A DNA stretch of 64,000 nt from an uncultured delta proteobacterium (lineage in GTDB: Bacteria > Myxococcota > Myxococcia > Myxococcales > Anaeromyxobacteraceae). Location of the stretch: assembly GCA_963814585.1 (NCBI GenBank), contig CAWFDF010000016.1, forward strand, positions 32,001-96,000, in the 5' to 3' direction. The position numbers and the translations under genes were made by a program. Shown here piece by piece: positions 3,673 through 33,609 of the stretch. How positions within the stretch are numbered: position 1 is the stretch's first letter; the number at the start of each line of letters is the position of its first letter. The notes beneath the pieces are model-generated. The model did no database searches. It worked only from the letters and a program-made list of their open reading frames with translations, and was not told where the DNA came from.

Positions 3673-4830
3673 CTAGCGCCTTCCGTTCCGCTGCGAGAGC
3701 TCGGCCATGAGCGGCGCGCCGCCCACCGGCACCCAGCCGCCGCCCTCGGCGCGGAGCACGGCGTGCACCCGGAGCGGCTGGTGGCTGGTGCGCGGGTCGA
3801 GCTCCTGGTGGAGCGGCAGGTTGAAGTAGTAGAGGCGCGTGCCGGTCCCGAAGCGGAGCCGGCAGGCCGGCGTGCCATGGAAGTCGTCGGTGGAGAACTC
3901 CGGCGTGGCCACCCGGGCCAGCCGGTGCCGGGGCCCGAGGAACACCGAGGAGACGCCGAAGCCGCCCGGGACGGGGTCGCCGAGCTCGCTCCCCTCGGAG
4001 CTGTTGCCGAAGACGGTGATGGTCTCCCTCACGCCGGGCGTGTCCTCCAGGTACTCGCCGTAGAACCCGGCCAGCACGTCCCGGTAGGCGCGGTGCTCGG
4101 GCTTGGGGTTGCACTGGATCACGAAGAGCGCGTCCAGGGTCCGGCGCGCCGCGAAGTACTGCTGGTTGGCGTGGTCGACGATGAGCCGGATGTTGGAGCC
4201 GTAGAGGTCCCGGTACAGGTAGTCGAGGCAGATCAGCACCATGAAGTGGAAGAAGGCCGGCTGGGCGCGGAACCACCAGAAGTGCCGGCCCCGGTACAGG
4301 TCGCCGGACTTGTCGAGGAACTCCTCGGCGCGGAACGGGTGGCTCTTGGCCTCGAAGAACACCCGCAGCCGCCCGCTCGCCTCCTTCACCGCCACGCAGC
4401 ACCAGTTCACCGGGATGTCGGGGAGCGCCCCGGCCGCCAGGTCGCGCTCGACCGCCGGGATGGCCAGCCGGTTGTCGTCGCCGAAGCGCACCAGGGTGTC
4501 GAGGTAGGCGCGCAGCGGGACGTGCTCCAGGCCGAACATGGTCACGGTGCTGGGCCGGAAGCGTTCGCGCACGATGGCGAGGGCGTCGTCGAGCCGCGAG
4601 GCGGGCAAGGCCGCCTCCGGGAAGGTGAGGAAGTGGAGCTTCTGGAAGCGATCGTCCCGCGCCACCAGCTCGAGCACCGAGGCCACGGTGCTCCACTGCG
4701 CCTCGCGGTCCCGCAGGGCGAACCCCTGCGCGGTGGCGATGACCCGCACCGGGACCTGGGCCACCAGGCAGTGGAGGTGGTTGCCCCGCGGGTAGTCGAG
4801 GTTGACCTCGGCCTCGAGGATCTGGATCAC
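3673..4830 (-). CDS. Uncharacterised protein with carbon-nitrogen hydrolase (nitrilase-fold)-like motifs
   Basis: TFPEA, FEAKSHP and LICLD resemble the E-K-C triad; probable GTG start at 4830. Confidence 0.55.
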   Translation of the reverse strand: MIQILEAEVNLDYPRGNHLHCLVAQVPVRVIATAQGFALRDREAQWSTVASVLELVARDDRFQKLHFLTFPEAALPASRLDDALAIVRERFRPSTVTMFGLEHVPLRAYLDTLVRFGDDNRLAIPAVERDLAAGALPDIPVNWCCVAVKEASGRLRVFFEAKSHPFRAEEFLDKSGDLYRGRHFWWFRAQPAFFHFMVLICLDYLYRDLYGSNIRLIVDHANQQYFAARRTLDALFVIQCNPKPEHRAYRDVLAGFYGEYLEDTPGVRETITVFGNSSEGSELGDPVPGGFGVSSVFLGPRHRLARVATPEFSTDDFHGTPACRLRFGTGTRLYYFNLPLHQELDPRTSHQPLRVHAVLRAEGGGWVPVGGAPLMAELSQRNGRR

Positions 4831-5066
4831 GATGCCCGCCCCCTCGGTCCGCTCCGGCCCCAGCCGCCCGGCGGCGCCCGGCCCGATCGAGGGCGCCCTG
4901 CCGGCCGACCCCTCCACCTTGCGGCGGCGACGCCGGCGGGGCAACCGGCCTCACGGGGCGCCTGGCGAGCCGACGCCGGCCAAGCCCGGGCGGGTTCTCC
5001 CGAGGCGACCCACCGCGGCGACCGGACCAGGTTCGCTCCCCGGTCGGGGGGCCCCGGACAGGCAGC

Positions 5067-5115
5067 TTGACGGATGGCACCGCGCCCAGCACATTCAACC
5101 ATTCAATTGACAATG
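5067..5115 (+). promoter_or_regulatory. Sigma70-like promoter with overlapping candidate ArsR-family operator
   Basis: TTGACG (5067-5072), 17 bp, CACATT (5090-5095); AT-rich ATTCAACCATTCAATTGACAAT just before the ArsR start. Confidence 0.55.
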
Positions 5116-5805
5116 ATCAATATCGAGACCCGTCGTCGATCGGCGCTCGCCCACTACGGCGAGATCGCCCGCCTGGGCAAGGCGATGGCCAGCCCGGTCC
5201 GGCTGCAGCTCCTCGACCTCCTCCGGCAAGGGCCGCGAACCGTCGAGGAGCTGGCCGGCACCGCCGGCGTCACCGTCGCCAACTCGTCTCGCCACCTCCA
5301 GCAGATGCGCTCCGCCCGGCTGGTGACCGCGGCGCGGGAGGGGCGCCACGTCCGCTACCGGCTGGCGGACGGCGGCGTCTCGGAGGCCTTCGGGATGCTC
5401 CGGGGCCTCGCCGAGACCCTGCTCCCCGAGATGGACCGGCTGCGGCGCGAGCTGGGCGCGCTCGAGGCCTCCGAGCGCCAGGCGCTGCTGTCCGACCTCC
5501 GCGGCGGACGGAGCACGCTCCTCGACGTCCGCCCCGCCGAGGAGTTCGAGGCGGGGCACCTGCCCGGGGCCCGATCGATCCCCCTCGACGAGCTGCCCTC
5601 GCGCCTCGACGAGCTCCCTCGCGACCGGCCGGTTGTCGCGTATTGCCGCGGCCCCTACTGCCCGCTTGCCGCGGACGCCGCGGAGATCTTGAGTCGGGCC
5701 GGCTACCGCGCCCGGCACCTCGACCTCGGCGTCCCGGACCTGACCCCGGCACGGCCGCACCGCAGCAGCAGCGCACTCCACCTTCGCACGAGGAAGTCCC
5801 GATGA
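5113..5805 (+). CDS. ArsR/SmtB-family transcriptional regulator fused to a rhodanese domain
   Basis: HTH region SPVRLQLLDLL..TVEELA..ANSSRHLQ; rhodanese LDVRPAEEFEAGHLPGA and YCRGPYC. Confidence 0.9.
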   Translation: MINIETRRRSALAHYGEIARLGKAMASPVRLQLLDLLRQGPRTVEELAGTAGVTVANSSRHLQQMRSARLVTAAREGRHVRYRLADGGVSEAFGMLRGLAETLLPEMDRLRRELGALEASERQALLSDLRGGRSTLLDVRPAEEFEAGHLPGARSIPLDELPSRLDELPRDRPVVAYCRGPYCPLAADAAEILSRAGYRARHLDLGVPDLTPARPHRSSSALHLRTRKSR

Positions 5806-6749
5806 GAGCCATCCACGCCGCCGTCGCGCTGTCCCTCCTCTCCCTGGCCACCCCGGCCCTGGCCGCCGACGAGTTCATCGGCCACGAGGAGGCCAAGGGG
5901 CTGGTCGGAAAGCCCAACGTCCGCTTCGTCTGGGCCGACGCCGAGAAGGAGCTCGTCAAGGGGCACATCCCCGGCTCGGTGGAGGCCTACGCCCACGACC
6001 TGCACCTCCTCGACGACGTCAAGGCGTGCAAGGGCCTGCCCATGTGCGAGCCGCGCGCCGGCAAGTTCATCGGCGAGAAGCTGGGCATCGACGCCGGCAC
6101 CGAGGTGGTGGTCTACGACGGCGGCCCCGGCGTCAACGCCAGCGGCGCCTGGTTCTTCCTCAAGCTCTACGGCGTGAAGAAGGTCCGCATCCTCGAGGGT
6201 GGGCTGGCCACCTGGAAGGCCCACGGCGGGCCGGTGGAGGCGGGCCCGCCGGCCAAGGTGGCGGCCAGGCCGTTCACGCCCGCCGTCGACTGGAGCATGA
6301 TCGCCGCGGTCGACGAGGTGAAGAAGGCCAGCGGCGACGCCGCGCACTACCTGCTGCTGGACTCCCGCCACAACCTCGACGAGTTCACCGGCAAGACGCT
6401 GCAGGGCGCCCTGGCCTCCCCGGACAAGGAGGAGACGGTGAAGCGCGGCGGCGCCATCCCCGGCGCGGTCTTCTCCCCGTGGAGCAAGTACGCCGGCAAC
6501 AAGGACGGCCAGGCCGACAAGCCGACGCTGAAGACCCAGGCCGACCTGGTGAAGCAGCTCGAGAAGCTGAAGAAGAACGGCTACGACCCCGCCAAGACGG
6601 TCATCAGCTACTGCCACGTCGGCCTCGGCCGCGGCTCCTTCCAGTACCTGGCCCTCCAGAAGGCCGGCCACAAGAACGTCAAGGTCTACGTCGGCTCCTG
6701 GGACGAGTGGGGCAACGACCCCTCGCTCCCGCTGGCCGCGCAGCCCTAG
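5802..6749 (+). CDS. Secreted tandem-domain sulfurtransferase (rhodanese)
   Basis: Sec signal ending ALA; GHIPGS, ILEGG, GGAIPGA, active-site YCHVGLGR, VYVGSWDEW. Confidence 0.88.
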   Translation: MRAIHAAVALSLLSLATPALAADEFIGHEEAKGLVGKPNVRFVWADAEKELVKGHIPGSVEAYAHDLHLLDDVKACKGLPMCEPRAGKFIGEKLGIDAGTEVVVYDGGPGVNASGAWFFLKLYGVKKVRILEGGLATWKAHGGPVEAGPPAKVAARPFTPAVDWSMIAAVDEVKKASGDAAHYLLLDSRHNLDEFTGKTLQGALASPDKEETVKRGGAIPGAVFSPWSKYAGNKDGQADKPTLKTQADLVKQLEKLKKNGYDPAKTVISYCHVGLGRGSFQYLALQKAGHKNVKVYVGSWDEWGNDPSLPLAAQP

Positions 6750-6764
6750 CGCCCGGGAGCGTCC

Positions 6765-7892
6765 ATGCTCGGTCCCTTCCTCACGGGCGCCCTCACCGGC
6801 GCGGGCTTCGGGGTGGTGCTGTACAAGGTCGGCGCCACCCGCTACTCGCGCGTCATGGGGATGCTCACCCTGCGCGACACCAAGGTGATGAAGTTCGCCT
6901 TCACCGCCATCGGGGTGGCCTCCATCCTCTACGGCCTGGCCGCGGCGCTCGGCCTGGCCGAGGGGTGGGGGCTGGCGCCGCGGGTGATGCCCTGGCTGGG
7001 CGGCGCCCACCTGCTCGGCGGCGCGCTCTTCGGCGCCGGCCTGGGCATCTCCGGGCTCTGCCCCGGCACCTGCGTGGCCAAGTCGGGCGGGCGGGGCGGC
7101 GACAAGAAGTTCGCCACCCTGGGCGCGATGGTGGGGCTGGTCGCCGGCGTGCTCGTCTACGCCGCCATCAAGGACTGGCTGCTGGCCTCCGGCGTCATCG
7201 CCGCCAACCAGAAGCCGCTCACCGTCTACGGCGAGCTGGGGCTGCCCTACGCGGCGGCGGCGCTGGCCTGGGGGGCGCTCTTCGTGCTGATCGCCCTCTT
7301 CGCCGACCGGTTCACGCCGGAGAAGACCTACCAGCCGGCGCAGCCTCGCCAGGGGCTCCTCGACGTCGTGCGCGGCGAGTGGAGCTGGGTCGCCTCCGGC
7401 ACCGTGGGCGGCGTGCTGGTGGTGCTGGCCACCGCCCAGGGCGGCTACCTGGGCTTCTCGGGCGCGCTGCTGGCGGCCACCGGCTGGGCGGCCCAGGCGG
7501 TGGGCCACCCGCTCGAGCTGGTCCCTCGCATCAACGCCGACATCGTCTGGCGCGCCGCGCTGATCGTCGGCGTCTGGCCGGGCGCCTGGCTGGCGCACCG
7601 GGTCTCCCTCCCGTCGAGGGCGGCGGTGGAGGCCCCGGTGGCCAAGGTGCTCGACCCGGCCGCCATCGGCCGCAGCTTCGGCGCCGCCACCATGATGGCC
7701 GCCGGCGCGCTCATCGGCGGCGGCTGCACCACCGGCGCCTTCATCGCCGCCTGGCCGACCATGTCGCTGGGGAGCCTGGCCATGGCCGTGACCTTCTTCC
7801 TGGTCTCCATGGCGGTGGCCGGCGGCCGCAGCCTGGCCCACACCCTCGACGTCGGCGCCGCCCAGGCGGCGGGCGACCGCGTCTATGACTGA
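6765..7892 (+). CDS. YeeE/YedE-family sulfur-compound (thiosulfate-type) transporter, two fused halves
   Basis: Multi-TM; GGALFGAGLGISGLCPGT and GALIGGGCTTG motifs. Confidence 0.88.
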   Translation: MLGPFLTGALTGAGFGVVLYKVGATRYSRVMGMLTLRDTKVMKFAFTAIGVASILYGLAAALGLAEGWGLAPRVMPWLGGAHLLGGALFGAGLGISGLCPGTCVAKSGGRGGDKKFATLGAMVGLVAGVLVYAAIKDWLLASGVIAANQKPLTVYGELGLPYAAAALAWGALFVLIALFADRFTPEKTYQPAQPRQGLLDVVRGEWSWVASGTVGGVLVVLATAQGGYLGFSGALLAATGWAAQAVGHPLELVPRINADIVWRAALIVGVWPGAWLAHRVSLPSRAAVEAPVAKVLDPAAIGRSFGAATMMAAGALIGGGCTTGAFIAAWPTMSLGSLAMAVTFFLVSMAVAGGRSLAHTLDVGAAQAAGDRVYD

Positions 7893-7902
7893 GAGGCGAG
7901 CC

Positions 7903-8040
7903 ATGACCACCCAGGTCAGAGTCCTCCTCGTCGCCGCCATCCTGGCCCTGGCCCTCGGCTGGGCCGGCCTGCGACGCGGCAACCAGGCGCTCGAGCTGCG
8001 CCTGGCCAGCCAGCCCGCGGCCGGGGAGCGGTCGCCATGA
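7903..8040 (+). CDS. Small (45 aa) single-TM protein, absent from the ORF track
   Basis: RBS GAGAGG; MTTQVRVLLVAAILALALGWAGL...; stop overlaps the next ATG (ATGA). Confidence 0.6.
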   Translation: MTTQVRVLLVAAILALALGWAGLRRGNQALELRLASQPAAGERSP

Positions 8041-8507
8041 GGCGCGCCCGCCTCGAGCCGCTGGCCTACGCCGCGGCGCTGCTGGTGCTGGCCGGGCTCC
8101 TCGGCTTCGAGGGGCGCCGGCGCGTCGAGCTGGAGCGCCAGCTGCCGGTGGAGCCGAAGGAGCTGTACCGGCTGCTGGCCAGGACGCAGGCCACCTGGCA
8201 GCTCCTCGACATCCGGCCCGACCTGTCCGAGGGCTACGACGACGCCCACGTCCCGGGCGCCCTGCCGCTGCCCGGTTGCGACCCGGCGGCCGCGCCCGAG
8301 GCGGCCCGGGCCCGCATCCTCACCACCGTCCCCACCGTGGTGATCTCGGCCGAGGGCGGCGAGCCCGGCCTGCAGGAGTGCCTGGCCCGCTTCGCCTCGG
8401 CGCGCAGCCTGGCCGGCGGCATGGAGGCCTGGAGCGCGGCGAGCCTGCCGGAGGACTCCGGCGAGTACACCCCGCCGTCGGCCAAGGCCGGCGGCGGCTG
8501 CCTCTGA
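8037..8507 (+). CDS. Membrane-anchored rhodanese-like domain protein ending GGGCL
   Basis: N-terminal TM; LLDIR, AHVPGA, LAGGMEAW motifs. Confidence 0.8.
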   Translation: MRRARLEPLAYAAALLVLAGLLGFEGRRRVELERQLPVEPKELYRLLARTQATWQLLDIRPDLSEGYDDAHVPGALPLPGCDPAAAPEAARARILTTVPTVVISAEGGEPGLQECLARFASARSLAGGMEAWSAASLPEDSGEYTPPSAKAGGGCL

Positions 8508-8571
8508 CGAGGACGGCCGGGAAGAGGGCACGCGAGAGCGCGGAACGGAGCGGGAACGGAGGGAGACCGAC

Positions 8572-11438
8572 ATGACCGTCAGCCGCAGGAGCCTGCTGAA
8601 GAGCCTCGTCGCCCTGGGCGCCAGCGGGGCCGTCACCCGGGTGCTGGCCAAGGACGGGACACCGGCGGCCGCTCCCGCCGCCCCGGCGCCGGTCGGCACC
8701 GCCGCCACCGAGGCGGCCTGGCGCGCCGAGTTCGCCGCCACCTACGGCGACGGCGAGCAGCACGGCTTCGCCTACCACTGCGTCAACTGCCAGGGGAACT
8801 GCGCCTGGGAGGTGTGGACCGACCGGGACGGGAAGGTCACCCGCGAGAACCAGTCGGCCAGCTACCCGGCCGTGGCCGCCGACATCCCCGACGCCAACCC
8901 GCGCGGCTGCAACAAGGGCGTGCAGCAGTCGCAGCTGCTGTACCAGGCCGACCGGCTCCTCCACCCCATGCGCCGGGCCGGCGCCCGCGGCGAGGGGAAG
9001 TGGAAGCGCATCGGCTGGGACGAGGCCATCACCGAGGTGGCCACCCGGCTCTACGAGACCATGCTGGAGAAGGGGCCGGCCGGGAACTACGTGCACATGG
9101 GCTCGGGCATGCTCTCCGAGGCCCGGGCGGCCTCGGTGAAGCGGCTGGGCACCCTGCTCGGCGCGGTCCGCCCCTACATCGCCAGCTACGTCGGCGACAT
9201 GTTCCCCGGCGTCTCGGCGGTCTACGGCGAGGGGAACCTCGGCTGCACCTACGACTTCATCTACGGCAGCGACGTGGCGCTCTTCTGGGGCTGCAACCCC
9301 AACACCTCGCGCATCCCCGACGCCCACTACCTGTGGGAGGCGAAGTACCGCGGCGCCAGGGTCATCGTCATCACCCCGGAGTTCAACGCCACGGCGGTGC
9401 ACGCCGACCTGTGGGTGCCGGTGAAGGCCGGCGACGACGGCCACCTGGCGCTGGCCATCATCCACCGCCTGCTCACGCAGAAGCGCTACCCCGAGGCCTT
9501 CCTCAAGAAGTTCACCGACCTGCCGCTGCTGGTCCGCACCGACACCCGCGAGCTGGTGCGGCTGGCCGAGGTCGACCTCTCCGACCCGCGCTTCGACCGG
9601 TCCTCGGCGGCGCTCTTCGCCGCCGACGAGGAGAAGTGGCACGAGGTCTTCCTGGCCTGGGACGCGAGGCGCAGGCAAGGCCATCGCGCTGCCGGGCTGC
9701 GAGGGCTCCAGCATCGACACCCTGCGGCTGGAGGACATCGACTGGAAGCTCGACCCGGCCCTGACCGGGCGCCACCGGCTCAAGCTCAAGGGGCACGGCG
9801 AGGTGGAGGTGGTCCCCGCCTTCGCGCTCTTCGCCGAGGAGCTGGCCGCCTGGTCGGCGGAGAAGGTGCAGCCGGTCACCGGCGTCCACCCGTCGGTGGT
9901 GGACGCCCTGGCGCGGGAGCTGGCCGGATCGCGGACCGCGGTCATCACCCTCGGCTTCGCGGTGGGCAAGCACTTCAACGGCATGCTCTCGCAGCGGGCC
10001 ATCGCCTCGCTGGCCGCCTTCCTCGGCCGGCTCGGCCCCAGCGGCGGCCTCAACACCGAGAACGAGTGGAGCATCACCGGCCTGGAGGCGCTCTCCGGGT
10101 TCGCCGGCCGCTACACCCACCGCTTCGCCTCCGGCTTCGTCTCCGAGTTCATGATGGGCGACGGCCTCGACGACCCGTCCTTACGACGACGCCGACGTGA
10201 AGCGCGCCACCGGCCTGGAACGGGCCGCCTGGCGCGACCAGGTCACCCGCCTGGTGGCCGCCTCGGAGGGCGACGCCGGCGCCGGCAAGGGGAAGCCCTG
10301 GTGGAAGGGGAGCGAGACCTTCCTGCTCTTCGCCGACGCCCGCTTCCGGCGCAACAAGGGGGCCTACCGCGACGCCTTCCTGGAGAAGGCGAAGTTCATC
10401 GCCTACGGCGACTTCCGCATGAGCGAGTTCGCCACCTGGGCGGACGTCCTGCTCCCCTGCACCACCTCCTACGAGGCCTGGGACCTGCGCACCAACCCCG
10501 GCTACCACCGCTTCGCCAACCTCTGCGCGCCCCCGGCCAACCTGAAGAGGGTCGGCGAGGTGAAGTCGGAGTGGGAGATCTCCACCCTCATCGCCGAGAA
10601 GCTGCAGGCGCTGGCGCTGGCCCGCTTCAAGGCCACCGGCGACGAGCGGGCCATCAAGATCCCCGACCCCACCCACACCCAGGCCGGCTTCCACGCCCTG
10701 GACCGGCTGGTCGAGGAGTTCACGCTGGGCGGCAAGCTGCGCACCGACCGCGACGCGGTGGAGTTCGCGCTCGACCACGTGGACCAGTTCAAGCCCTCCA
10801 CCTCCAGGGCCATGGTGGAGCGGGGCGGCTTCCTGGTCCTCAACGACAAGGCCGGCAAGACCTCGCCGCTCTACCCGGACCGGCCCTACAGCTCCTTCGA
10901 GAACAACCTCCACCTGAGCCAGCGCTTCGAGACCCTCTCCGGGCGCCTCACCTTCTACGTGGACCACCCGGCCTGGATCGCGGCGCGCGCCGCGCTGCCC
11001 ACCGCCACCCTGCCCATCCACCCGAGGCGCTTCCCGCTGCTGCTGATGACGCCCCACTCCCGCTGGTCGATCCACTCGACCTACAAGGTCTCGCCCACCC
11101 TGCTCCGGCTGCAGCGCGGCGAGCCCTGCCTGACGCTCAACCCGGCCACGGCCCGCCAGAAGGGCATCGCCGACGGCGACCGGGTGCGGATGTGGAACGC
11201 GCTGGGCGAGGTGGTGCTGCAGGCCAAGCTGGCCGCCGGCGTCCCGCCCGGCGCCGTGGTGCTGGAGCACGGCTGGGAGCCGTTCATGTACCGCGGCAAG
11301 CAGGGGCACAACGCCATCGTGGGCGACGCCCTCAACCTGCTGGAGCTGAGCGACGGCTGGGGCCACCTGAAGTTCGGCACCAACTGGGACGGCAACCAGC
11401 ACGCCTACGACGCCACCGTCGACGTGGCGCGGGTCTGA
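8572..11438 (+). CDS. Type II DMSO-reductase-family molybdopterin oxidoreductase alpha subunit, Tat-exported (two +1 frameshifts near 9670 and 10181; ~950 aa when corrected)
   Basis: Tat motif SRRSLLK; FS0 motif HCVNCQGNC...NPRGCNKG; candidate Mo-ligand Asp in SYVGD; WGCNP; TPHSRWSIHS. Confidence 0.88.
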
Positions 11439-11451
11439 GGGGGAGGCGACC

Positions 11452-12498
11452 ATGTCCGCGAGACAGCTGGCGATGGTGATGGACCTCAACAAGTGCATCG
11501 GCTGCCAGACCTGCACGGTCTCCTGCAAGACGCAGTGGACCAACCGGAGCGGCCGCGAGTACATGTACTGGAACAACGTCGAGACCCGCCCCGGCGCCGG
11601 CTACCCGGCCGGCTGGGAGCAGCAGGGGGGCGGGTTCGACGCCGCCGGGGCGCTGCGCGAGGGGACCGTGCCGTCGCGCAGCGGCGCCTACGGCACGCCC
11701 TGGGACTTCAACCTCGACGAGGCGGCGCTGGGCAAGGAGATCCGCCCGGACTCCGAGCCGCGCCAGGGGCCGAACTGGGACGAGGACGTGGGCGCCGGGG
11801 AGTTCCCCAACGCCTGGCACTTCTACCTGCCGCGCATCTGCAACCACTGCTCCAGCCCGGGCTGCCTGGCGGCCTGCCCGCGCGGCGCCATCTTCAAGCG
11901 CGACCAGGACGGCGTGGTGCTGGTGGACCAGGAGCGCTGCGAGGGGCTGCGCTACTGCGTCGCCGGCTGCCCCTACAAGAAGATCTACTTCAACCCCAAG
12001 GTCTCCAGGTCGGAGAAGTGCATCCTCTGCTTCCCGCGCGTGGAGAAGGGGCTGGCGCCGGCCTGCGCCCAGCAGTGCGTGGGGCGTCTGCGCTTCGTCG
12101 GCTACCTCGACGACCAGGCCGGCCAGGTCCACCAGCTGGTGCACCGCTGGCAGGTGGCCCTGCCACTTCACGCGGAGTACGGCACGCAGCCCAACGTCTA
12201 CTACGTGCCGCCGCTGCCGGGACCGCCCCGCTACGACGCCCAGGGGAAGGCCATCGCCGGGAGCGAGCGCATCCCGGCCGCCTACCTGGAGGGGCTCTTC
12301 GGCCCCGGGGTGAAGAAGGCCCTGGCCACGCTGGAGGCCGAGAGGAAGAAGAAGAAGGCCGGCCAGCCGTCGGAGCTGATGGACCTGCTCATCGCCTTCA
12401 AGCAGGAGGGGATGTTCCGGCTGGGCACGGCGACCGACCCGGGGCTGGTGAAGCTGGGGCGGCGCGGCATCCGCTCGGTCGAAGGCGGGGGGCACTGA
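11452..12498 (+). CDS. Type II DMSO-reductase-family iron-sulfur beta subunit (NarH/PcrB/SerB/EbdB-like)
   Basis: DLNKCIGCQTC..CK..W, WNNVET, NWDED, PRICNHC..P.C...C, CPYKK, CILCFPR, FGT/YGTQPNVYYVPP. Confidence 0.92.
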   Translation: MSARQLAMVMDLNKCIGCQTCTVSCKTQWTNRSGREYMYWNNVETRPGAGYPAGWEQQGGGFDAAGALREGTVPSRSGAYGTPWDFNLDEAALGKEIRPDSEPRQGPNWDEDVGAGEFPNAWHFYLPRICNHCSSPGCLAACPRGAIFKRDQDGVVLVDQERCEGLRYCVAGCPYKKIYFNPKVSRSEKCILCFPRVEKGLAPACAQQCVGRLRFVGYLDDQAGQVHQLVHRWQVALPLHAEYGTQPNVYYVPPLPGPPRYDAQGKAIAGSERIPAAYLEGLFGPGVKKALATLEAERKKKKAGQPSELMDLLIAFKQEGMFRLGTATDPGLVKLGRRGIRSVEGGGH

Positions 12499-12500
12499 CC

Positions 12501-13677
12501 ATGCGCGCCCTGCTCGCCGCCGCCCTGGCCTCGCTGGCCGTCCCCCTGGCACCGGCCGCCGCGCCGCCGCCGGCCGGGGAGATCATCGAGGTGAAGGACC
12601 TCCCCGGCCCGCTCCCCGTCGACCCGGCCTCCCCGGCCTGGGATGCGCTTCCCGCCACCCGCCTCCTGGCCGCGCCGCAGCGGACCATCCGGCTCCACGA
12701 CCAGAAGGCCAACGCCGCCCTGGCCACGGCCCGGCTCCGCGAGCTCACGGTGCGCGCCGCCACCGACGGCCAGGGACCTGGCGGTGGTCGTCGACTGGAA
12801 CGACGGCACCGAGGACCGCGGCGCGGCGGACGCCACCGATCGCTACGGCGACGGCGTGGCGCTGCAGTGGCCGCTCCACTTCGGGGCCGGGGTGCGCCTC
12901 CCCTACGTGGGCATGGGGGACGATCGGCAGCCGGTGGGCGTGGTGCTGCAGCGCGCGGCCGCCCAGGGCTCGGTGGTCCGCCAGGCCCGGGGCACCGGGT
13001 TCGGCGCGCTGGCCCGCGCCGACCTGGGCCCGGTCCAGGCGGCCATGCGCCACGACGGGCAGCGGCTCGGCTGGCGCGCCGTCTTCGTCCGGCCGCTGGC
13101 GGCCGGCGGCCTGGACCTGCGGCGCGGCCTGGTCCCGCTGGCCCTGGCCGTCTGGGACGGCGGGCGCGACGAGCGCGGCGGCAACAAGGCGCTGACGGGC
13201 TGGAAGTTCCTGCGCCTGGCCCGCTACCCGCTCGACGAGGCCTACGCCGCCGAGCAGGCCTGGGGGCGCGAGGCCGGCCCGCGCGACCTGAAGCGCGGGC
13301 AGGCCCTCTTCGAGGAGACCTGCACCGCCTGCCACCAGGCCGGCTCGCAGCGCGCCGCCGCCGCCGGGCTGGCCCCCGACCTCTCGGAGCTCGGCGTCAT
13401 CTCCACCCCCGGCTACCTGCGCGACTCGCTGCGGGCGCCCAGCGAGGTGATCGTGCCGAACCCCAACCCGCGCCAGCACCAGGACCGGACCGCCAGGCTC
13501 CCCCCCGGCGCCCCGTGGCCGGCCGACGACGCCTACGTCTGGTACGTGCTCGAGGCGGACGGCCGCAGGACCTCGTCGATGCCCGACTCCGCGGCGTTGC
13601 CGCCCCAGGATCTCGCCGACCTGGTCGCCTACCTCATGACCCTGGGGGCGGAGCCGCCCGCCGGGAGGACCCCATGA
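12501..13677 (+). CDS. Gamma subunit: EbdC-like DOMON heme b domain fused to a c-type cytochrome (+1 frameshift near 12772)
   Basis: Signal peptide; DGVALQWP, YVGMGD (Met), AVWDG..ERGGNK (Lys); CTACH and distal SMP. Confidence 0.82.
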
Positions 13678-14081
13678 AGCCGATCCTCGCTGCCGCGCTG
13701 CTCTCGCTGATCACGCCGTCCGGCCCGGCCCGCGCCGAAGGTCCCGGCGAGGAGGTGGAGGTCACCGCCGGCGTGGTGACCGGCCTGGACTGCGCCCTGC
13801 AGGCCCGCGCCAAGGGCGAGCTCAAGCTGCTCACCTCCTGCCCGCCCGCCCAGGCCGCCAAGGGGCTGGTGGTCTTCGACGTGGCCGAGAAGCGCATCTA
13901 CCGGATCGCCGACAAGACGGTCCGGCGCTACCAGCTGGAGAGCGCCTTCGGCGGCGGCAGCATCGACTTCACCGGCAAGGCGGTGAAGCTGGACACGGCG
14001 AAGGACATCACCACCGTCGAGGTGGCGGAGTTCTCGATCGCCAGGCGGCCCAAGCCCGGCGCCTTCAAGGGGTGCCTGTGA
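13674..14081 (+). CDS. Small secreted hypothetical protein (135 aa) ending FKGCL
   Basis: RBS GGAGG, ATGA overlap, signal peptide ending ARA, three Cys. Confidence 0.75.
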   Translation: MKPILAAALLSLITPSGPARAEGPGEEVEVTAGVVTGLDCALQARAKGELKLLTSCPPAQAAKGLVVFDVAEKRIYRIADKTVRRYQLESAFGGGSIDFTGKAVKLDTAKDITTVEVAEFSIARRPKPGAFKGCL

Positions 14082-14100
14082 CGGCGCCGCGAGGGGCGCC

Positions 14101-14973
14101 GTGAGCGAGGGGGCCGCCCTGGTCCAGCTGGGCGGGCGCCAGGAGGTCCCCTTCGGCCACACCGCGGCGCCGCACGACCGCGCCCCCTGGGCCCGCCACG
14201 TGGTCCTCTTCACCAGCGGCAAGGGCGGCGTGGGCAAGTCGACGGTGGCGGTCAACGTGGCCAACGCCCTGGCGCAGCGTGGCCTGCGGGTCGGGCTCCT
14301 CGACGCCGACGTCCACGGCCCCAGCGTGCCGCGCATGCTGCAGCTCGAGGGCGAGCGGGTGCGGTGGAACGACGCCGGCCGGATGGTCCCCGCCGAGAAC
14401 TTCGGCCTCCGCGTCATGAGCGTGGGGCTGACCACGCCGGACGCCGACACGCCGCTGGCCTGGCGCTCCGCGGTGGCCATCACGGCGCTGCTCCAGCTGC
14501 TCGACGACGTGGCCTGGGGCGAGCTGGACGTGCTGGCCATCGACCTGCCGCCCGGCACCGGCGACGTGCCGCTCACCCTGGCGCAGGAGCTCCGCGTGGG
14601 CGCCGCCGTGGTGGTGACCACGCCGCAGCTGGTGGCCACCGACGACGTGCGGCGCGCCCTGCGGCTCCTGCTCGAGGTGGGCGTGCCGGTGGCCGGCGTG
14701 GTGGAGAACATGAGCGGCTTCGTCGCTCCCGACACCGGCGTCCGCCACCACCCGTTCGGCGAGGGCGGTGGCCGGGCGCTGGCCGGCGACTTCGAGGTCC
14801 CCTTCCTCGGCGAGATCCCGCTCGACCCGGCCATCTGCGCCGCGGCCGACGCCGGGACGCCCATCGCCGCGGTGGGCGGAGAGGCGCACCGGGCCCTCTT
14901 CGCCGGCCTGGCCGAGCGGCTCTGGACGTGGCTGGAGTCGCGGGCGGCTGGCGAGGCGAGCACGGGCCGATAG
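14101..14973 (+). CDS. Mrp/ApbC/NBP35-family P-loop ATPase lacking the CPxC motif
   Basis: SGKGGVGKST, DADVHGPS, DLPPGTGD, VVENMS followed by GFVAPDTG. Confidence 0.88.
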   Translation: MSEGAALVQLGGRQEVPFGHTAAPHDRAPWARHVVLFTSGKGGVGKSTVAVNVANALAQRGLRVGLLDADVHGPSVPRMLQLEGERVRWNDAGRMVPAENFGLRVMSVGLTTPDADTPLAWRSAVAITALLQLLDDVAWGELDVLAIDLPPGTGDVPLTLAQELRVGAAVVVTTPQLVATDDVRRALRLLLEVGVPVAGVVENMSGFVAPDTGVRHHPFGEGGGRALAGDFEVPFLGEIPLDPAICAAADAGTPIAAVGGEAHRALFAGLAERLWTWLESRAAGEASTGR

Positions 14974-15065: not shown

Positions 15066-15079
15066 TTGACCGCGATCAA
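15066..15079 (+). promoter_or_regulatory. FNR/CRP-type binding site upstream of the oxidase operon
   Basis: TTGAC-CGCG-ATCAA versus consensus TTGAT-N4-ATCAA, within an AT-rich intergenic segment. Confidence 0.6.
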
Positions 15080-15127
15080 TCAAGCTCCTGGAACTACCCG
15101 TTTTCGCGATCCTTCGTCCAGGCCGGG

Positions 15128-15959
15128 ATGGCGCTCCCTGGTCACGATCGGGTCGCTGGCCGCCGCAGCGCTGGCGGCCCCTCCTGCCCTGGCCCAGACC
15201 ACCGACCAGCTCAAGCGAGAGGTGGCCAGCATCGGCGTCGAGGAGCGGCTCGGCGCCGCCGTGCCCCGCGCGGCCACCTTCACCGACTCGGAGGGGCGCC
15301 CGGTCACGCTGGCGGAGCTCGGCGGCCGGCCGCTCCTCCTCTCCTTCAACTACACCAGCTGCCCGCGGCTCTGCGGCCTGCAGCTCTCCGGCCTGTCGCG
15401 GGCGCTGCGCGATCTCGGCTGGAGCGGCGACCGCTTCGGCGTGCTGACGGTGAGCATCGACCCCGACGAGCAGCGTCCCCAGCTGGCCCGCTACAAGCAG
15501 GCGCACGTGCGCGAGGCCGGCGGCAGCGACGGCGCCGACCGGGCCTGGCGCTTCGTCACCGGGCCGAAGGCCGACGTGGACGCGCTGGCCGAGGCGGTGG
15601 GCTTCAAGTACCGCTACGACCCGAGGACCAAGGAGTACGCCCACCAGGCCACCCTGGTGGTCCTCACCGGCGACGGGCGGGTCAGCGGCTACCTGCACGG
15701 CATCAGCTACCCGGCCCCGGCGCTCACCGCGGCCCTGGCGCGGGCCTCGTCGAACAGCGTCGCCACCACCGAGGAGCAGCGCAGCGTCGGCGGCTTCCTC
15801 CTCACCTGCATGGGCTTCGACCCGGCCGACCCGGCCCCGCTGGCGCTCAAGGCCATGCGCACCGGCGGCACCGCCGCCCTGGTCTTCCTCGTCTCCTTCC
15901 TCGGCTACCACGCGCTCCGCGGCGCCAGGCGCCGCCGCCTCCAGGAAAAGGCACCATGA
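15128..15959 (+). CDS. SCO-family copper chaperone (start uncertain; ATG 15128 needs a +1 correction)
   Basis: YTSCPRLC CxxxC, WRFVTG, YAH, C-terminal TM. Confidence 0.85.
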
Positions 15960-16929
15960 CCCTCGCCCCCGGGCTGCTCCAGGCCCTCCTCCTCGCCGGC
16001 CCCGGCTACCTGCCGGAGCGCGCCTCCAGCGTGGCCGAGGGGGTGGACCACGTCTTCGGCTTCATCTTCTGGGTGAGCGCCGTCTCGCTGGTGCTCATCG
16101 TGGCGGTCACGGTGGTCTTCGTGCTGCGCTACCGGGCCAGCGCCTCGCGCCAGGCGCCGGAGGCCTCGCCCGACCACTCCACCCGCCTGGAGCTGACCTG
16201 GTCCGGCATCCCGCTGGTCCTGGTGCTGGTGATGTTCGGCCTCTCCACCAAGGTCTACCTGGAGATGACCTCCAACCCGCCCGGCCAGGCGCCGGCCCAG
16301 GTCAAGGTGACGGCCAAGAAGTGGTCGTGGTGGTTCGACCACCCGGACGGCATGGGGGCCAAGGACCTGCACCTGGTGGTGGATCGCCCGGTCGAGCTGG
16401 TGCTGGCCTCGATCGACGTCGTCCATTCCCTGTACGTGCCGCAGTTCCGCCTCAAGCAGGACGCGGTCCCGGGCCGCTACACCCGGATGAACTTCACCCC
16501 CACCAAGGCCGGCACCTTCCCCATCCTCTGCACCGAGTACTGCGGGACCAACCACTCGCAGATGCTGGCCGAGGTGGTGGTCCACGAGGACCAGGCCTCC
16601 TACGACGCCTGGGCCGCCGAGGGGCGCTCCCCCACCCTCTCGCTGGTCGACCAGGGGCACAAGGTCTTCGACGAGCGGGGCTGCACCGCCTGCCACAGCG
16701 AGGACGGCTCGGAGGGGCTCGGGCCGACCGTCAAGGGGCTGTGGGGCAAGACCGAGAAGCTGGTGGGCGGCGGCACCGCCGTCGTCGACGAGAACTACGT
16801 GCGCGAGTCGATCGTGGCGCCCGGCAAGAAGATCGTGGCCGGCTACGACGACCTGATGCCGCCCACCCCGCTCGAGGAGCGGGACCTGCTGGCGCTCATC
16901 GCCTACCTGCAGAGCCTGAAGGAGAAGCC

Positions 16930-16933
<4 letters not shown>
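15956..16933 (+). CDS. coxB: Cytochrome c oxidase subunit II with fused cytochrome c (caa3-type)
   Basis: [17 protein letters not shown]uA site, C-terminal CTACH. Confidence 0.95.
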
Positions 16934-18596
<1,663 letters not shown>

Positions 18597-18600
<4 letters not shown>

Positions 18601-19301
18601 GCGGCCCGGCGTCACCTCGGCCGGTGGCGGGCACCGCCTCGCCCTTCCTCGCCAGCCACTTCCGGAGCATGGGGGAGCAGCTCGACGCCAGCAAGCTGGG
18701 GCTGTGGCTCTTCCTGGCCAGCGAGCTGCTCTTCTTCGGCGGGCTCTTCGTGGCCTACGCCGTCTACCGGGCCAACCACCCCGAGCTGTTCCACTACGCC
18801 CACCACTTCCTCGACTGGCGCCTGGGCGGCCTCAACACGCTGGTGCTGATCGGCAGCAGCCTGACCGCCGCCTGGGCGGTGCGCAGCGCGCAGCTGGGCC
18901 GGCAGCGCGAGCTGCGGCTCCTGCTGGTCGCCACCCTGCTGCTGGCCAGCGTCTTCCTGGTGGTGAAGTACTTCGAGTACACCCACAAGCTGCACCACGG
19001 CGTCTTCTGGGGCGCCGCCTACCACCCCAGCGAGGAGATCCTGGCCTCGCTGCCGGCGGCGCTGCGGGCGGCGCCGGTCCCGGCGCACCTCGGCACCTTC
19101 TTCAGCATCTACTTCCTCATGACCGGCCTGCACGGCATCCACGTGCTGGTCGGCATGGGGCTGTACCTGTGGCTGATCCGGCGGGCCGGGCGCGGCGACT
19201 TCTCGCCCGGCTACTACGTCCCGGTCGACGCGGTGGCCCTCTACTGGCACCTGGTCGACATGATCTGGATCTTCCTCTTCCCGCTCTTCTACCTGATCTG
19301 A
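18597..19301 (+). CDS. coxC: Cytochrome c oxidase subunit III
   Basis: [33 protein letters not shown]. Confidence 0.95.
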
Positions 19302-19312
19302 CGAGGCCGGCC

Positions 19313-19691
19313 ATGAACGACCACGCCGCTCCCCACGCCGCGCCGGCCGCCGAGGCCGCCCCGCACGCGCTCCCCGCCTCGGTGCTGCTCGGCACCGCCG
19401 GGGCCCTGCTGGCGCTCACGGCGCTCACGGTGGCCTCCTCGCGCCTCGACCTGGGCCCCTTCAACATCGTCCTGGCGCTGGCCATCGCCGGCCTGAAGGC
19501 CTCGCTGGTGGCCATGTTCTTCATGCACCTCAGGTACGAGCACCGCTTCCAGGCGGTGATCTTCGTCTCGGCGCTCTTCTTCGTGGCCCTCTTCGTCGGC
19601 TTCGTGGTGTTCGACACCATGCAGTACCAGCCGGACCTGAGGGCCGCGGTGGAGGCGGCGGCGGCCGCTCCCAGCCCGTCATCCCAGGTAG
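19313..19691 (+). CDS. coxD: Cytochrome c oxidase subunit IV (true stop uncertain; TAG at 19689 or 19770 after a +1 correction)
   Basis: LLALTALTV, KASLVAMFFMHLRY motif; three TM helices. Confidence 0.8.
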
Positions 19692-21756: not shown

Positions 21757-21929
21757 GTGCGTGCCGGCAAGATGCCTACTGCGAGAGCCAATCCTCTCGC
21801 TGCGGCAGGCGGCCTCGTCGGTCCGCTGCTCAGTGTAGCGCTGCTACGCTTCCGCTGCTCCCTCCTCGGGCGCCAGCCTCGCTTCGGTCTCGGCTCTCTC
21901 GTCACGTCATCTTGCCTGGGGCGCGGCAC
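21757..21929 (+). repeat. Dispersed TIR repeat, copy 2 (left end degenerate)
   Basis: GGCAAGATGCCTACTGCGAGAG...CATCTTGCCTGGGGCGCGGCAC, collinear with copy 1; sits between convergent genes. Confidence 0.9.
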
Positions 21930-31364: not shown

Positions 31365-33609
31365 GTGCACCCGCGCCTGCGCCGCCAGCTCGCCGAGCTG
31401 CTCGATGCCGACGAGGCCACCCGGCCCTCGCTGAAGCGGCTGTGGCGGGAGATCGAGGCCGAGTACCGCCGGGCCGACCAGGACCACGCCGCGCTGGAGC
31501 ACGCCCTCGCCCTGGTGACCGGCCTGGTGCGCCCGCCCGCCGCGCCCGAGGCGTCTCCGTCGCCGCTCCAAGGCCACGCCGCTGTCCCGGCTGCGCCGCC
31601 AGCTCTTCGAGCGGGCCCCCTTCGCCGCCCTCCTCTGCGACCGGCACCTGCAGGTGCTGGCCTGGAACGGCGCCGCCGAGCGCCAGTTCGGCCACGCCGG
31701 GAAGGACGCGGTGGGGCGGAGGCTGGCCGACCTGCTCTTCTCCGAGAACGACCGGGCCGCGGTGCAGCGCGAGCTGCTGGGGCACCTCGAGCGCGGCGAG
31801 GTCGACCAGTCGCTTCGGGTCGCCTCGCGCCGCTCCGGAGAGGCCCGCCTCGACGAGTGGACGCTGGTGCCGCTGCCGGACCGGGACGGGCACCCCATGG
31901 GCGCCGCCATCCTGGTGCGGGAGCCCTTCGCCTCCGACGACCGCTACGCGGTGGCCTGGCAGGGGACCGGCGACGGCATCTTCGACTGGGACCTGCGCTC
32001 GGACCAGCTCTGGCTCTCCAGCACCTGGCTCGAGCTGGTGGGGCTGAAGCAGGGCAGCGGCGCCCCCGCGGACTGGATGGACCGCATCCACGCCTCCGAC
32101 CGCGAGGCGGTCCAGACGGCCATGCGCGCCCACCTGCAGGGCGGGTCGCCCCGCTTCGAGAGCGAGCACCGCCTCCACCACGCCGACGGCAGCTGGCGCT
32201 GGGTGCTGGCGCGGGCCGGCGCGGTGCGCGACGCCGGCGGCAAGGCCATCCGCCTGTGCGGGTCGATGATGGACGTGACCGAGCGCCGGGCCGCCGCCGA
32301 CCGGGTGGTGCACGACGCCCTGCACGACCCGCTCACCGGCCTGCCCAACCGGGCCATGTTCCTGGACCTGATCAAGCGCTCCTTCGCCCGCACCCGGCGG
32401 CGCGAGAGCTACGCCTTCGCGGTCCTCTTCCTCGACCTCGACCACTTCAAGTCGGTCAACGACGGCCTGGGCCACGCCGCCGGCGACGACCTGCTGATCC
32501 AGACCACGCGCCGGCTGCAGACCTGCCTGCGCGAGGGCGACACCCTGGCCCGCATGGGCGGCGACGAGTTCACCGTCCTGGTGGACGACGTCAAGGGCGT
32601 GGTGGACGCCGAGGCGGTGGCGGAGCGCATCCGCCAGGCCACCTCGCTGCCCTTCCACATCGGCACCCACGAGGTCTTCTCCACCGTCAGCATCGGCATC
32701 GCCATCTCGTCGCCGGCCTACGGCCGCCACGAGGACCTGCTGCTCGACGCCGACACCGCCATGTACCGGGCCAAGGCCCAGGGGCGGGCGCGCTGCGTGG
32801 TCTTCGACGGGAACGTGCGGGAGCGGGCGCCGCAGCTCCTCGACCTGGAGACCGACCTGCGCAACGCCCTGCAGCGGCAGGAGTTCCGCGTCCAGTACCT
32901 GCCGGTGGTGGACGTCGCCACCGGGCGCATCCAGGGGCTGGAGGCGCTGGTGCGCTGGGCCCACCCCAAGCGCGGCATGATGGCGCCGGACCAGTTCGTC
33001 CCCTTCGCCGAGGAGACCGGCCTGATCGTGCCCATCGGCCGCTGGCTCCTCCAGCAGGCCGGCAAGGACCTGCAGCGCTGCCGGAAGGCCCCCTCCGCCA
33101 AGCGCCTCATGCTCCACGTCAACCTCTCCTCCAAGCAGCTGCTGCAGGGGGACCTGCTCGAGAACATCGACGACGTGGTCCACGAGCACCACATGGAGCC
33201 GGCCGACCTCGCCCTGGAGCTCTCCGAGAGCGTCCTGCGCCAGTCGGAGGATTCGCCGCGCCGGCTGGCCCAGCTGCACAGCCACGGCGTCAAGCTGTTC
33301 ATGGACGACTTCGGATCCGGCTCCTCGTCGATCCGCTCGCTGCACCAGTTCGAGTGCGACTCGGTCAAGATCGACCGCTCCCTCTTCACCGGCGGGGCAC
33401 CGCGCGGCGAGGCGCCCGAGCTGGTGCGCACCATCATGGCCCTGGCCCGCGACATGGGGAAGCCGGTGGTCGCCGAGGGCGTCGAGACGGCGGAGCAGTT
33501 CCGCTTCCTGCGCGAGGTGGGCTGCAGCGCGGCCCAGGGCTACTTCTTCTCACCGCCCATCGACGGCGACGCCGCGGTCACGCTGCTGGAGAAGAACGCC
33601 CGCTGGTGA
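31365..33609 (+). CDS. PAS-PAS-GGDEF-EAL protein (+1 frameshift near 31550)
   Basis: PAS/PAC motifs, HDPLTGLPNR, GGDEF, EALVRW, DDFGSG. Confidence 0.9.

Follow-up and report, generated by a model that had tools for sequence, protein, structure and literature searches.

Soluble, periplasmic molybdenum enzymes of the dimethyl sulfoxide (DMSO) reductase family are the closest described relatives of the system reported here. DdhABC of Rhodovulum sulfidophilum pairs an Asp-ligated alpha subunit, exported by the twin-arginine translocation (Tat) pathway, with an Fe–S beta subunit and a haem b gamma subunit, and ClrABDC, SerABDC and PcrAB (PDB 4ydd) share the same fold and subunit plan. The Met/Lys-ligated haem b and class I haem c of Ebd, Ddh and Ser are high-potential (~+230 to +320 mV). 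Two further systems provide parallels for sulfur handling: the periplasmic rhodanese Sud of Wolinella supplies polysulfide sulfur to the Mo enzyme Psr, and SoxY carries the arm GGCGG at its C-terminus. Here we analyse a ten-gene cluster at 5113–14973, entirely on the forward (+) strand, of a 64,000-nucleotide stretch (the window; positions 32,001–96,000 of contig CAWFDF010000016.1, assembly GCA_963814585.1) from an uncultured member of the Anaeromyxobacteraceae. The cluster combines an alpha–beta–gamma enzyme of this type with rhodaneses and cysteine-tailed proteins. Open reading frame (ORF) listing, Pfam and NCBIfam placed all ten co-oriented genes where a preliminary description had put them, with ATGA stop/start overlaps at 5802, 8037 and 13674. 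We give a probability of roughly 0.45 to the reading that this module oxidises carrier-bound sulfane sulfur in the periplasm and sends the electrons via haem b and haem c to an oxidase; that it has some role in sulfur metabolism we consider quite probable.

The linkage between the enzyme and a sulfurtransferase was evaluated across phyla. A pattern scan of species-level genomes returned 527 stretches encoding a relative of the alpha subunit, the best 80 of which were examined, together with 69 metagenome loci from a branch with ~50% identity; 64 Campylobacterota-type loci entered the neighbourhood counts. These counts cover only loci long enough to hold the gene in question, which were picked by alpha similarity and include kin that are not independent. 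The best 80 of the 527 belong to Myxococcota, Bdellovibrionota, Aquificota (Hydrogenothermaceae) and a few records titled Pseudomonadota, and whole-genome searches found the alpha subunit in 28/301 Myxococcota and 40/151 Aquificota genomes. Names in the ~50%-identical branch are those of Sulfurovaceae, Sulfuricurvum, Sulfurimonas, Nitrosophilus, Hydrogenimonas, Nitratiruptor, Sulfurospirillum and Thiovulum, and many of the named carriers are sulfur-oxidising genera. A tandem rhodanese with its active Cys stands beside alpha in every evaluable locus (67/67 genome loci and 34/34 Campylobacterota-type loci; 101/101). Genome loci also hold beta (70/71), gamma (66/67), YeeE (70/70) and an anchored rhodanese-like gene (74/74), together with less regular partners: an ArsR fusion (19/62), Mrp (28/65) and coxI (13/57, all close relatives of the host genome). 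Campylobacterota-type loci hold beta (46/46) and gamma (45/45); queries with the window proteins found neither YeeE (0/40) nor the anchored protein (0/47), and the gene lists of five such loci leave no room for either. These counts therefore define a core of rhodanese, alpha, beta, gamma and tail protein, whose gene order is the same in three distant phyla; YeeE and ArsR are lineage add-ons, and the anchored rhodanese-like gene likewise falls outside the core. The expectation that homologues keep the sulfur genes thus holds for the tandem rhodanese and fails for YeeE in Campylobacterota-type loci and for ArsR.

The last core gene (13674–14081, +) encodes a secreted 135-residue protein ending in FKGCL, our proposed sulfur carrier. 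The preliminary description had correctly recorded a secreted GCL protein here and left this Cys-tailed, carrier-like protein, the most telling part of the cluster, uninterpreted. Because the first sequence set had been chosen by the tail, the profile hidden Markov model (HMM) was rebuilt without it; with that profile, 119 of 120 closed copies end in FKGCL and one in FKECL, and selenocysteine occurs in the tail of none of these 120, which come from the best 80 of the 527 genome matches and the 69 metagenome loci. Mean column identity over 93 sequences is 26%, with two internal Cys and the terminal FKGCL invariant in that set. The predicted model (predicted local distance difference test, pLDDT, 88) is an OB-like beta barrel in which residues 103–114 are unstructured. 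A fold search retrieved only generic OB folds (Z up to 6.8), Foldseek gave no match at E 0.001, the Atlas returned unnamed clusters only, and neither Pfam nor NCBIfam held a matching family. Members occur in 28/28 alpha-bearing Myxococcota genomes, with one partial match in the other 273. The gene lies 3′ of gamma, in many cases with an overlap, and persists in loci where YeeE was not found, which ties the protein to the enzyme and not to import. By analogy, the terminal Cys on a flexible arm recalls that of SoxY; a homology search found no relationship.

A second, independent Cys arm is borne by the N-terminally membrane-anchored, single rhodanese-homology protein encoded at 8037–8507 (+; PF00581), which lacks the catalytic-loop Cys, ends in PPxAKAGGGCL and keeps three Cys columns in 71/71 tail-selected sequences. 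Like the 13674 protein, it terminates in Cys on a Pro/Gly/Lys tail. A second YeeE set in the host genome (L153:2238–8034; G000 C3, about 92–98 kb) encodes a YeeE–rhodanese fusion ending in KGGCG, a SoxY-like tail, and lies beside two multihaem cytochromes, of which one includes a cytochrome b domain.

The sulfurtransferase itself appears intact. The secreted tandem-domain rhodanese at 5802–6749 (+; PF00581 twice) has the loop YCHVGLGR, the motif YCxVGxGR is present in 126/126 sequences, and the closest PDB entries are thiosulfate sulfurtransferases whose catalytic Cys aligns. Downstream, the YeeE/YedE (Sulf_transp) membrane protein at 6765–7892 (+; PF04143, 84 bits, above cutoff) carries GxCPGT and GGCTTG, found in 81 and 83 of 83 frames, respectively. 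In a weak alignment (E 0.012) with S. thermophila YeeE, two Cys align and the N-terminal Cys does not. Between YeeE and the anchored rhodanese-like gene lies a single-transmembrane microprotein of 45 residues (7903–8040, +; no Pfam match), and a hydrophobic ORF of 35–60 residues occupies this place in 68/70 loci.

In the window, alpha (8572–11438, +) is split over three frames and gamma over two. Frameshift correction, as the preliminary description had advised, was performed against L001, an intact homologous locus with 92% DNA identity to the window, and located three +1 frameshifts of one extra base each, at 9673 and 10183 in alpha and at 12773 in gamma. The extra base at 10183 is missing from public contigs of runs X1, X4 and X5, and that at 12773 from those of X1, X4 and part of X5; that at 9673 is missing in X1, with the deletion absent from depth-5 cover in X4. 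All three are probably assembly errors, and the intact homologue P0001 was used for all protein work. RNA run X19 yielded only scattered short pieces at ~90–95% identity, and hence no evidence of expression in the host organism.

The alpha gene encodes a Tat-exported molybdenum bis(pyranopterin guanine dinucleotide) subunit with the motifs SRRSLLK, HCVNCQGNC and SYVGD; pieces of the frameshifted subunit match TIGR03479. The ligands of Fe–S cluster FS0 (H-x3-C-x3-C...C; H70, C74, C78 and C114) and the Asp ligand D210 (P0001 numbering), which aligns with the PcrA GD motif, are invariant in 63/63 alphas, and the Asp ligand and subunit plan assign the protein to the type II DMSO reductase family. 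Three trees (FastTree, 68 rows; IQ-TREE LG+G4, 36 rows; IQ-TREE with the C20 mixture, 26 rows, being the 36-row set minus 10) agree on a single clade of module alphas (support 100; all supports are from the Shimodaira–Hasegawa-like approximate likelihood ratio test, SH-aLRT, not bootstrap) on a stem of ~0.5. Moving outward, the clade is joined by P0124, an unplaced representative (99), then by the clade of P0630 (97–98) and then by the ClrA group (100). Source name and length suggest that P0630 (Rhodovulum sulfidophilum, 910 residues) is DdhA, and we treat it as such. Module alphas are hence sister to, and not inside, the clade that holds P0630, and stand apart from ClrA with full support, whereas E. 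coli NarG and Haloferax NarG fall outside the module/Ddh/Clr grouping altogether.

SerA, PcrA, EbdA and NxrA, which lie outside the tree rows, were compared by PDB and HMM scores only. P0001 is 37.6% identical to P0630, 34% to ClrA, 30% to haloarchaeal (Haloferax) pNarG and, over a short stretch, 29% to E. coli NarG. Against TIGR03479, P0001 (714.4 bits) and P0121 (726.2 bits) do not reach the cutoff of 984.75, compared with 1346 for ClrA, and neither TIGR01580 (NarG) nor NF042978 gave a match at E 1e-90. HMMER comparisons gave 352 bits to PcrA and 268 bits to EbdA for P0001, 601–665 bits to PcrA for other representatives, and 98 bits between NxrA and alpha; PcrA (4ydd) is also the best PDB match (352 bits, TM-score 0.73). 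In the trees, alpha belongs to none of the characterised type II subgroups represented there, and the uncharacterised clade envisaged in the preliminary description holds up among these references. The gate residues Phe164/Tyr165 of PcrA are replaced by Ile/Pro and Ala/Ser in module alphas, and PcrA Trp461 corresponds to Trp500 (43/63). P0125 and P0127, two long-branch members of the clade from which FS0 cysteines or motifs for pterin binding have been lost, are possibly inactive derivatives.

The electron-transfer subunits suggest a soluble, high-potential chain. The Fe–S beta subunit (11452–12498, +) matches TIGR03478 at 516.7 bits, above the cutoff of 480.7. The secreted gamma subunit (12501–13677, +) consists of an EbdC/ClrC-type haem b domain (EB_dh) and a class I cytochrome c (CTACH); its frameshifted piece scores 78 bits against TIGR03477, below the cutoff of 170, the Met and Lys haem b motifs align with ClrC, and CxxCH is present in most gamma homologues. 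Gamma carries haem b and haem c, and no quinone-binding anchor is encoded with the module. Reduction potentials are −260 mV for polysulfide and about −400 mV for thiosulfate. Haems with the potentials of those in Ebd, Ddh and Ser would be too positive to reduce either compound and would allow sulfur oxidation or the reduction of nitrate, selenate or chlorate. In contrast to DdhABC, the module has haem c fused to gamma and a constant rhodanese and Cys-tailed protein, and in contrast to the periplasmic clr, ser, ddh and ebd operons the host locus has no delta chaperone gene within the ten-gene cluster. TorD-like queries found nothing in the host genome, where the only PF02613 match is at the nar locus on C8; Campylobacterota-type loci do have a TorD-like gene. 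Directly 3′ of the module, SCO/SenC and cytochrome c oxidase genes (coxII with cytochrome c, coxI and coxIII; 15066–19301, +, within an operon spanning 15066–19543) form an adjacent, non-core set whose product is a possible electron sink. Elsewhere in the window, similar ORF translations drew attention to a ~130-base stretch that occurs twice in opposite orientation, at about 1640–1780 and about 21760–21900, and is possibly a repeated non-coding element.

The cluster begins with an ArsR/SmtB–rhodanese fusion regulator (5113–5805, +; PF01022 and PF00581 by Pfam and NCBIfam) whose only cysteines, Cys178 and Cys183, lie in the rhodanese loop YCRGPYC. Directly 5′ of its ATG, a putative promoter and ArsR operator occupy 5067–5110 (+). 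The promoter, TTGACG-17 nt-CACATT, was read by eye and was not called by a promoter scan. The inverted repeat TTCAA-N8-TTGA at 5094–5110 is the single match in the window (chance mean 0.00), and TCAA-N8-TTGA lies upstream of 21/23 homologous ArsR genes, compared with 0/115 tests with other spacers. This placement suggests autorepression, in which the fusion protein would repress its own operon through the predicted operator. A wider regulon was rejected, as the six other TCAA-N8-TTGA sites in the genome adjoin unrelated genes. Divergent from the ArsR gene, a 423-residue protein (3673–4944, reverse strand) has no Pfam match and is present in L001.

At the other end, the Mrp/NBP35 ATPase (14101–14973, +; PF10609) is a probable maturation factor. 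Mrp/ApbC Fe–S carriers have a cluster-binding CxxC after ENMS, which is missing here: the module Mrp has APDT in its place, in the window and in Campylobacterota-type loci, and CxxC follows 0/63 ENMS matches in module loci (about ten of which are chance matches outside Mrp), whereas the host genome's other Mrp (C8) has CPHC. In L110 (7559–8535, reverse strand), 123- and 202-residue proteins without NCBIfam match and an Mrp are encoded divergently from the module, an arrangement seen in many Campylobacterota-type loci.

A relative of this module has already been described under another name. Bizic et al. (PMC9938260) report a Thiovulum operon whose six genes comprise rhodanese genes, narG, narH, one for a cytochrome c and one without annotation. 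They label it as membrane-bound Nar without a test, and report that sox, dsr, apr and sulfite dehydrogenase genes are missing from the genome. Their RNA table gives values of 1907/1525 for alpha, 1737/1884 for rhodanese, 1435/1836 for gamma and 567/432 for the small gene, compared with 1088/1227 for Sqr IV and 2.9/15.4 for a napA-labelled ORF (a 1.1-kb piece). The Thiovulum ES ‘NarG’ (EJF07820) falls inside the module alpha clade. This expressed operon has in common with the module a rhodanese, the narG and narH genes, the cytochrome c gene and a gene that carries no annotation, whereas it is without the window's ArsR, YeeE, microprotein and anchored rhodanese-like gene. As for the sulfur module that the preliminary description had proposed, its distinct clade and rhodanese linkage stand, the substrate is one that we infer, and a relative proves to be in print as Nar (PMC9938260). 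Term look-ups in PMC11772811, PMC3665934, PMC11696919, PMC13609358, PMC10045233, PMC12998232, PMC7331816 and PMC5401914 turned up no passage on the clade. No earlier description of the FKGCL carrier and gene set was found in the literature searched, of which coverage is incomplete.

The gene set, its conservation, the clade and the motifs are observed, and from them we infer substrate, direction and binding as follows. The secreted rhodanese would load its catalytic Cys with sulfane sulfur drawn from polysulfide, elemental sulfur or thiosulfate and hand this sulfur to the C-terminal Cys of the FKGCL protein; in the host lineage, sulfur might also pass to the GGGCL arm of the anchored protein, which may connect the pool to YeeE. 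The arm would then offer its persulfide to the Asp-ligated Mo site for repeated oxygen-atom transfer and release of sulfite or sulfate, by analogy with the sister enzyme DdhA, which oxidises thioether sulfur. Electrons would flow from FS0 to the beta clusters, haem b, the fused haem c and cytochrome c oxidase, along a path whose components are established by homology. The ArsR–rhodanese, for which the operator motif at 5094–5110 is present, would repress until its rhodanese Cys was persulfidated. The enzyme is accompanied by a catalytically intact periplasmic sulfurtransferase and an invariant Cys arm. Together with the sister relation to a sulfur-oxidising dehydrogenase, the cytochrome c wiring and expression at the level of Sqr in Thiovulum, a sulfur bacterium for which no downstream enzymes are known, these features argue for oxidative sulfur chemistry.

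Gene linkage provides a further observation. A second, quinone-type Mo enzyme lies 3′ of the module in many Aquificota loci and nine others (L062:15749–22299 and L046:16542–22365; also L032, L033, L037, L039, L048, L050, L052 and L056). This uncharacterised Tat-exported protein of ~1070 residues is encoded with Fe–S and membrane subunits, a polyferredoxin and a TorD-like chaperone. It resembles Psr/Phs but scores below every model cutoff; an identity as tetrathionate reductase was rejected (TtrA 57 bits against a cutoff of 1750; best PhsA, 141 against 694). Full-length orthologues occur in 11/301 Myxococcota genomes, all 11 of them module-bearing, which we count in favour of the sulfane-sulfur reading, and nine other Myxococcota genomes have only partial matches (45–48%). 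In the host genome and its family the enzyme was not found (0/10), with the oxidase operon in its place. In L154 (3572–8158), a formate dehydrogenase alpha gene is split by one in-frame TGA, probably encoding selenocysteine.

Several points weigh against this reading. The host genome (92% complete) has no SoxB-type hydrolase over cutoff that could release the sulfonate, and no SoxY or flavocytochrome c sulfide dehydrogenase (FCSD) match; SoxY occurs in only 2/27 module-bearing Myxococcota. The Movile Thiovulum alpha was matched through its operon layout and the Thiovulum ES protein, not through its own sequence. According to PMC7952632, soxCD is in all Sulfurimonas genomes examined, and members of this genus carry the module, which is therefore no simple SoxCD replacement. 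Carriers also include Sulfurospirillum multivorans and S. arcachonense, reported without sox genes; in PMC4794192, sox is in only one of the Sulfurospirillum compared. Around the active site the predicted alpha model is of low quality (pLDDT <50 at 202–225 and 497–501), and the ClrA group also has small residues at the PcrA Phe164/Tyr165 positions, so that these residues provide no pointer to a protein substrate. Given this sharing and the unreliable loops they were left unused as evidence, and a wider active-site pocket could not be shown for the same reasons. Lastly, no biochemical, genetic or functional study of the module was found in the literature searched, with its incomplete coverage.

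A general role as stand-in for a missing SoxCD likewise found no support. SoxCD, which according to PMC13500833 oxidises the SoxYZ persulfide and is absent in Aquificota, scores over cutoff in 1/151 Aquificota genomes, and SoxB in 94/151, yet 68/98 SoxB-matching Aquificota genomes have no module match; Sulfurimonas (both present) and the host genome (no Sox) are equally at odds with the idea.

The same gene set and oxidative wiring would also serve a periplasmic sulfite dehydrogenase, in which thiosulfate is cleaved by the rhodanese and the free sulfite is converted to sulfate by the Mo enzyme, while the proteins with Cys arms do no more than store sulfane sulfur or pass it on, to YeeE in loci that have it. 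Such a single two-electron step needs no SoxB, fitting the host genome without SoxB over cutoff, and it would supply Thiovulum, for which no other sulfite dehydrogenase is reported (PMC9938260). However, the FKGCL gene is linked to gamma and retained where YeeE was not found, and a separate gene of the sulfite oxidase family, scoring below the SoxC cutoff, is present in some Aquificota carriers; we regard this explanation as unlikely. We think it quite unlikely that the enzyme is instead a high-potential reductase of nitrate, selenate or chlorate, with the sulfur genes serving maturation or the handling of products such as selenite. Clr and Ser share the soluble alpha–beta–gamma plan, and the Clr group is the next clade out; the Thiovulum relative is annotated narG; and some Hydrogenothermaceae use nitrate, arsenate or selenate, as stated in bioRxiv 10.64898/2026.06.14.732183. 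Set against this are the low identities to both NarG types and the lack of a TIGR01580 match noted above, the separate nar locus on C8 of the host genome, and NapA in 3/5 Aquificota carriers tested. The position aligned with the conserved NarG His is mixed (His in 33/63, Tyr in 30/63), no nitrate, chlorite or selenium genes occur in the 8 loci listed gene by gene, and the cluster indeed lacks a nitrate transporter, chlorite dismutase and NarI, as the preliminary description had it, whereas chlorite dismutase stands beside ClrA. The invariant rhodanese and Cys arm would also be left unexplained.

That Aquificota and some Myxococcota have a quinone-type Psr/Phs-like enzyme linked to the module, and that sulfur-reducing Sulfurospirillum are among the carriers, would suit a reductive enzyme acting on a carrier-bound S-sulfonate, polysulfide or tetrathionate, or disproportionation together with the Psr-like neighbour. 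The likeness to Wolinella lies in a periplasmic rhodanese feeding a Mo enzyme; unlike the module enzyme, Psr is quinone-linked, reductive and of another subfamily. This proposal is very unlikely, as the haems are too positive for polysulfide or thiosulfate, going by the potentials of their relatives, and the host's close relatives have an oxidase beside the module and no Psr-like enzyme (0/10). Organosulfur chemistry, whether thioether or thiol oxidation as in DdhA or metal-mediated transfer of a sulfur atom to an organic acceptor, draws on the sister relation to the Ddh group, with which alpha shares the extra Cys in HCxNC, and on the precedent of a metallopterin-dependent ergothioneine synthase for sulfur transfer (PMC9516567). 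Its chance is slight: the stem of ~0.5 separates alpha from the Ddh side, the ligand surroundings differ (YIASYVGD in module alpha vs DIFTDVGD), and a full respiratory electron wire with very high in-situ expression in Thiovulum is unsuited to a biosynthetic transferase. All remaining explanations together have a similarly slight chance.

Oxidation of carrier-bound sulfane sulfur would resemble SoxYZ/SoxCD (PMC13500833) in its logic, with a periplasmic Mo enzyme and c-type haem working on a Cys persulfide at a flexible C-terminus. The parts differ: the OB-like carrier has no SoxY Pfam match, the enzyme belongs to the DMSO reductase family and not to the sulfite oxidase family, a rhodanese would do the loading, the cluster encodes neither SoxAX nor SoxB, and no homology was found. 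Tentatively, the module may be a self-contained route of sulfane-sulfur oxidation besides SoxCD, rDsr and sHdr, in which a DMSO-reductase-family enzyme works on a convergent swinging-arm carrier, common to vent and cave chemolithotrophs and to myxobacteria of wetlands and sediments, and genome surveys may have miscounted it as nitrate reductase. It provides a concrete, testable candidate for the onward use of stored sulfur in oxidisers without SoxCD, Dsr or Apr, for which Thiovulum (PMC9938260) is an explicit case, and it is carried by cultured organisms (Sulfurihydrogenibium yellowstonense, Hydrogenimonas, Nitrosophilus and Sulfurospirillum multivorans). If the reading is true, the DMSO reductase family would gain a protein-bound substrate and sulfur metabolism a second, independently evolved swinging-arm carrier; some narG calls in Campylobacterota would be wrong, and oxidation of inorganic sulfur may extend to some myxobacteria, Anaeromyxobacteraceae among them.

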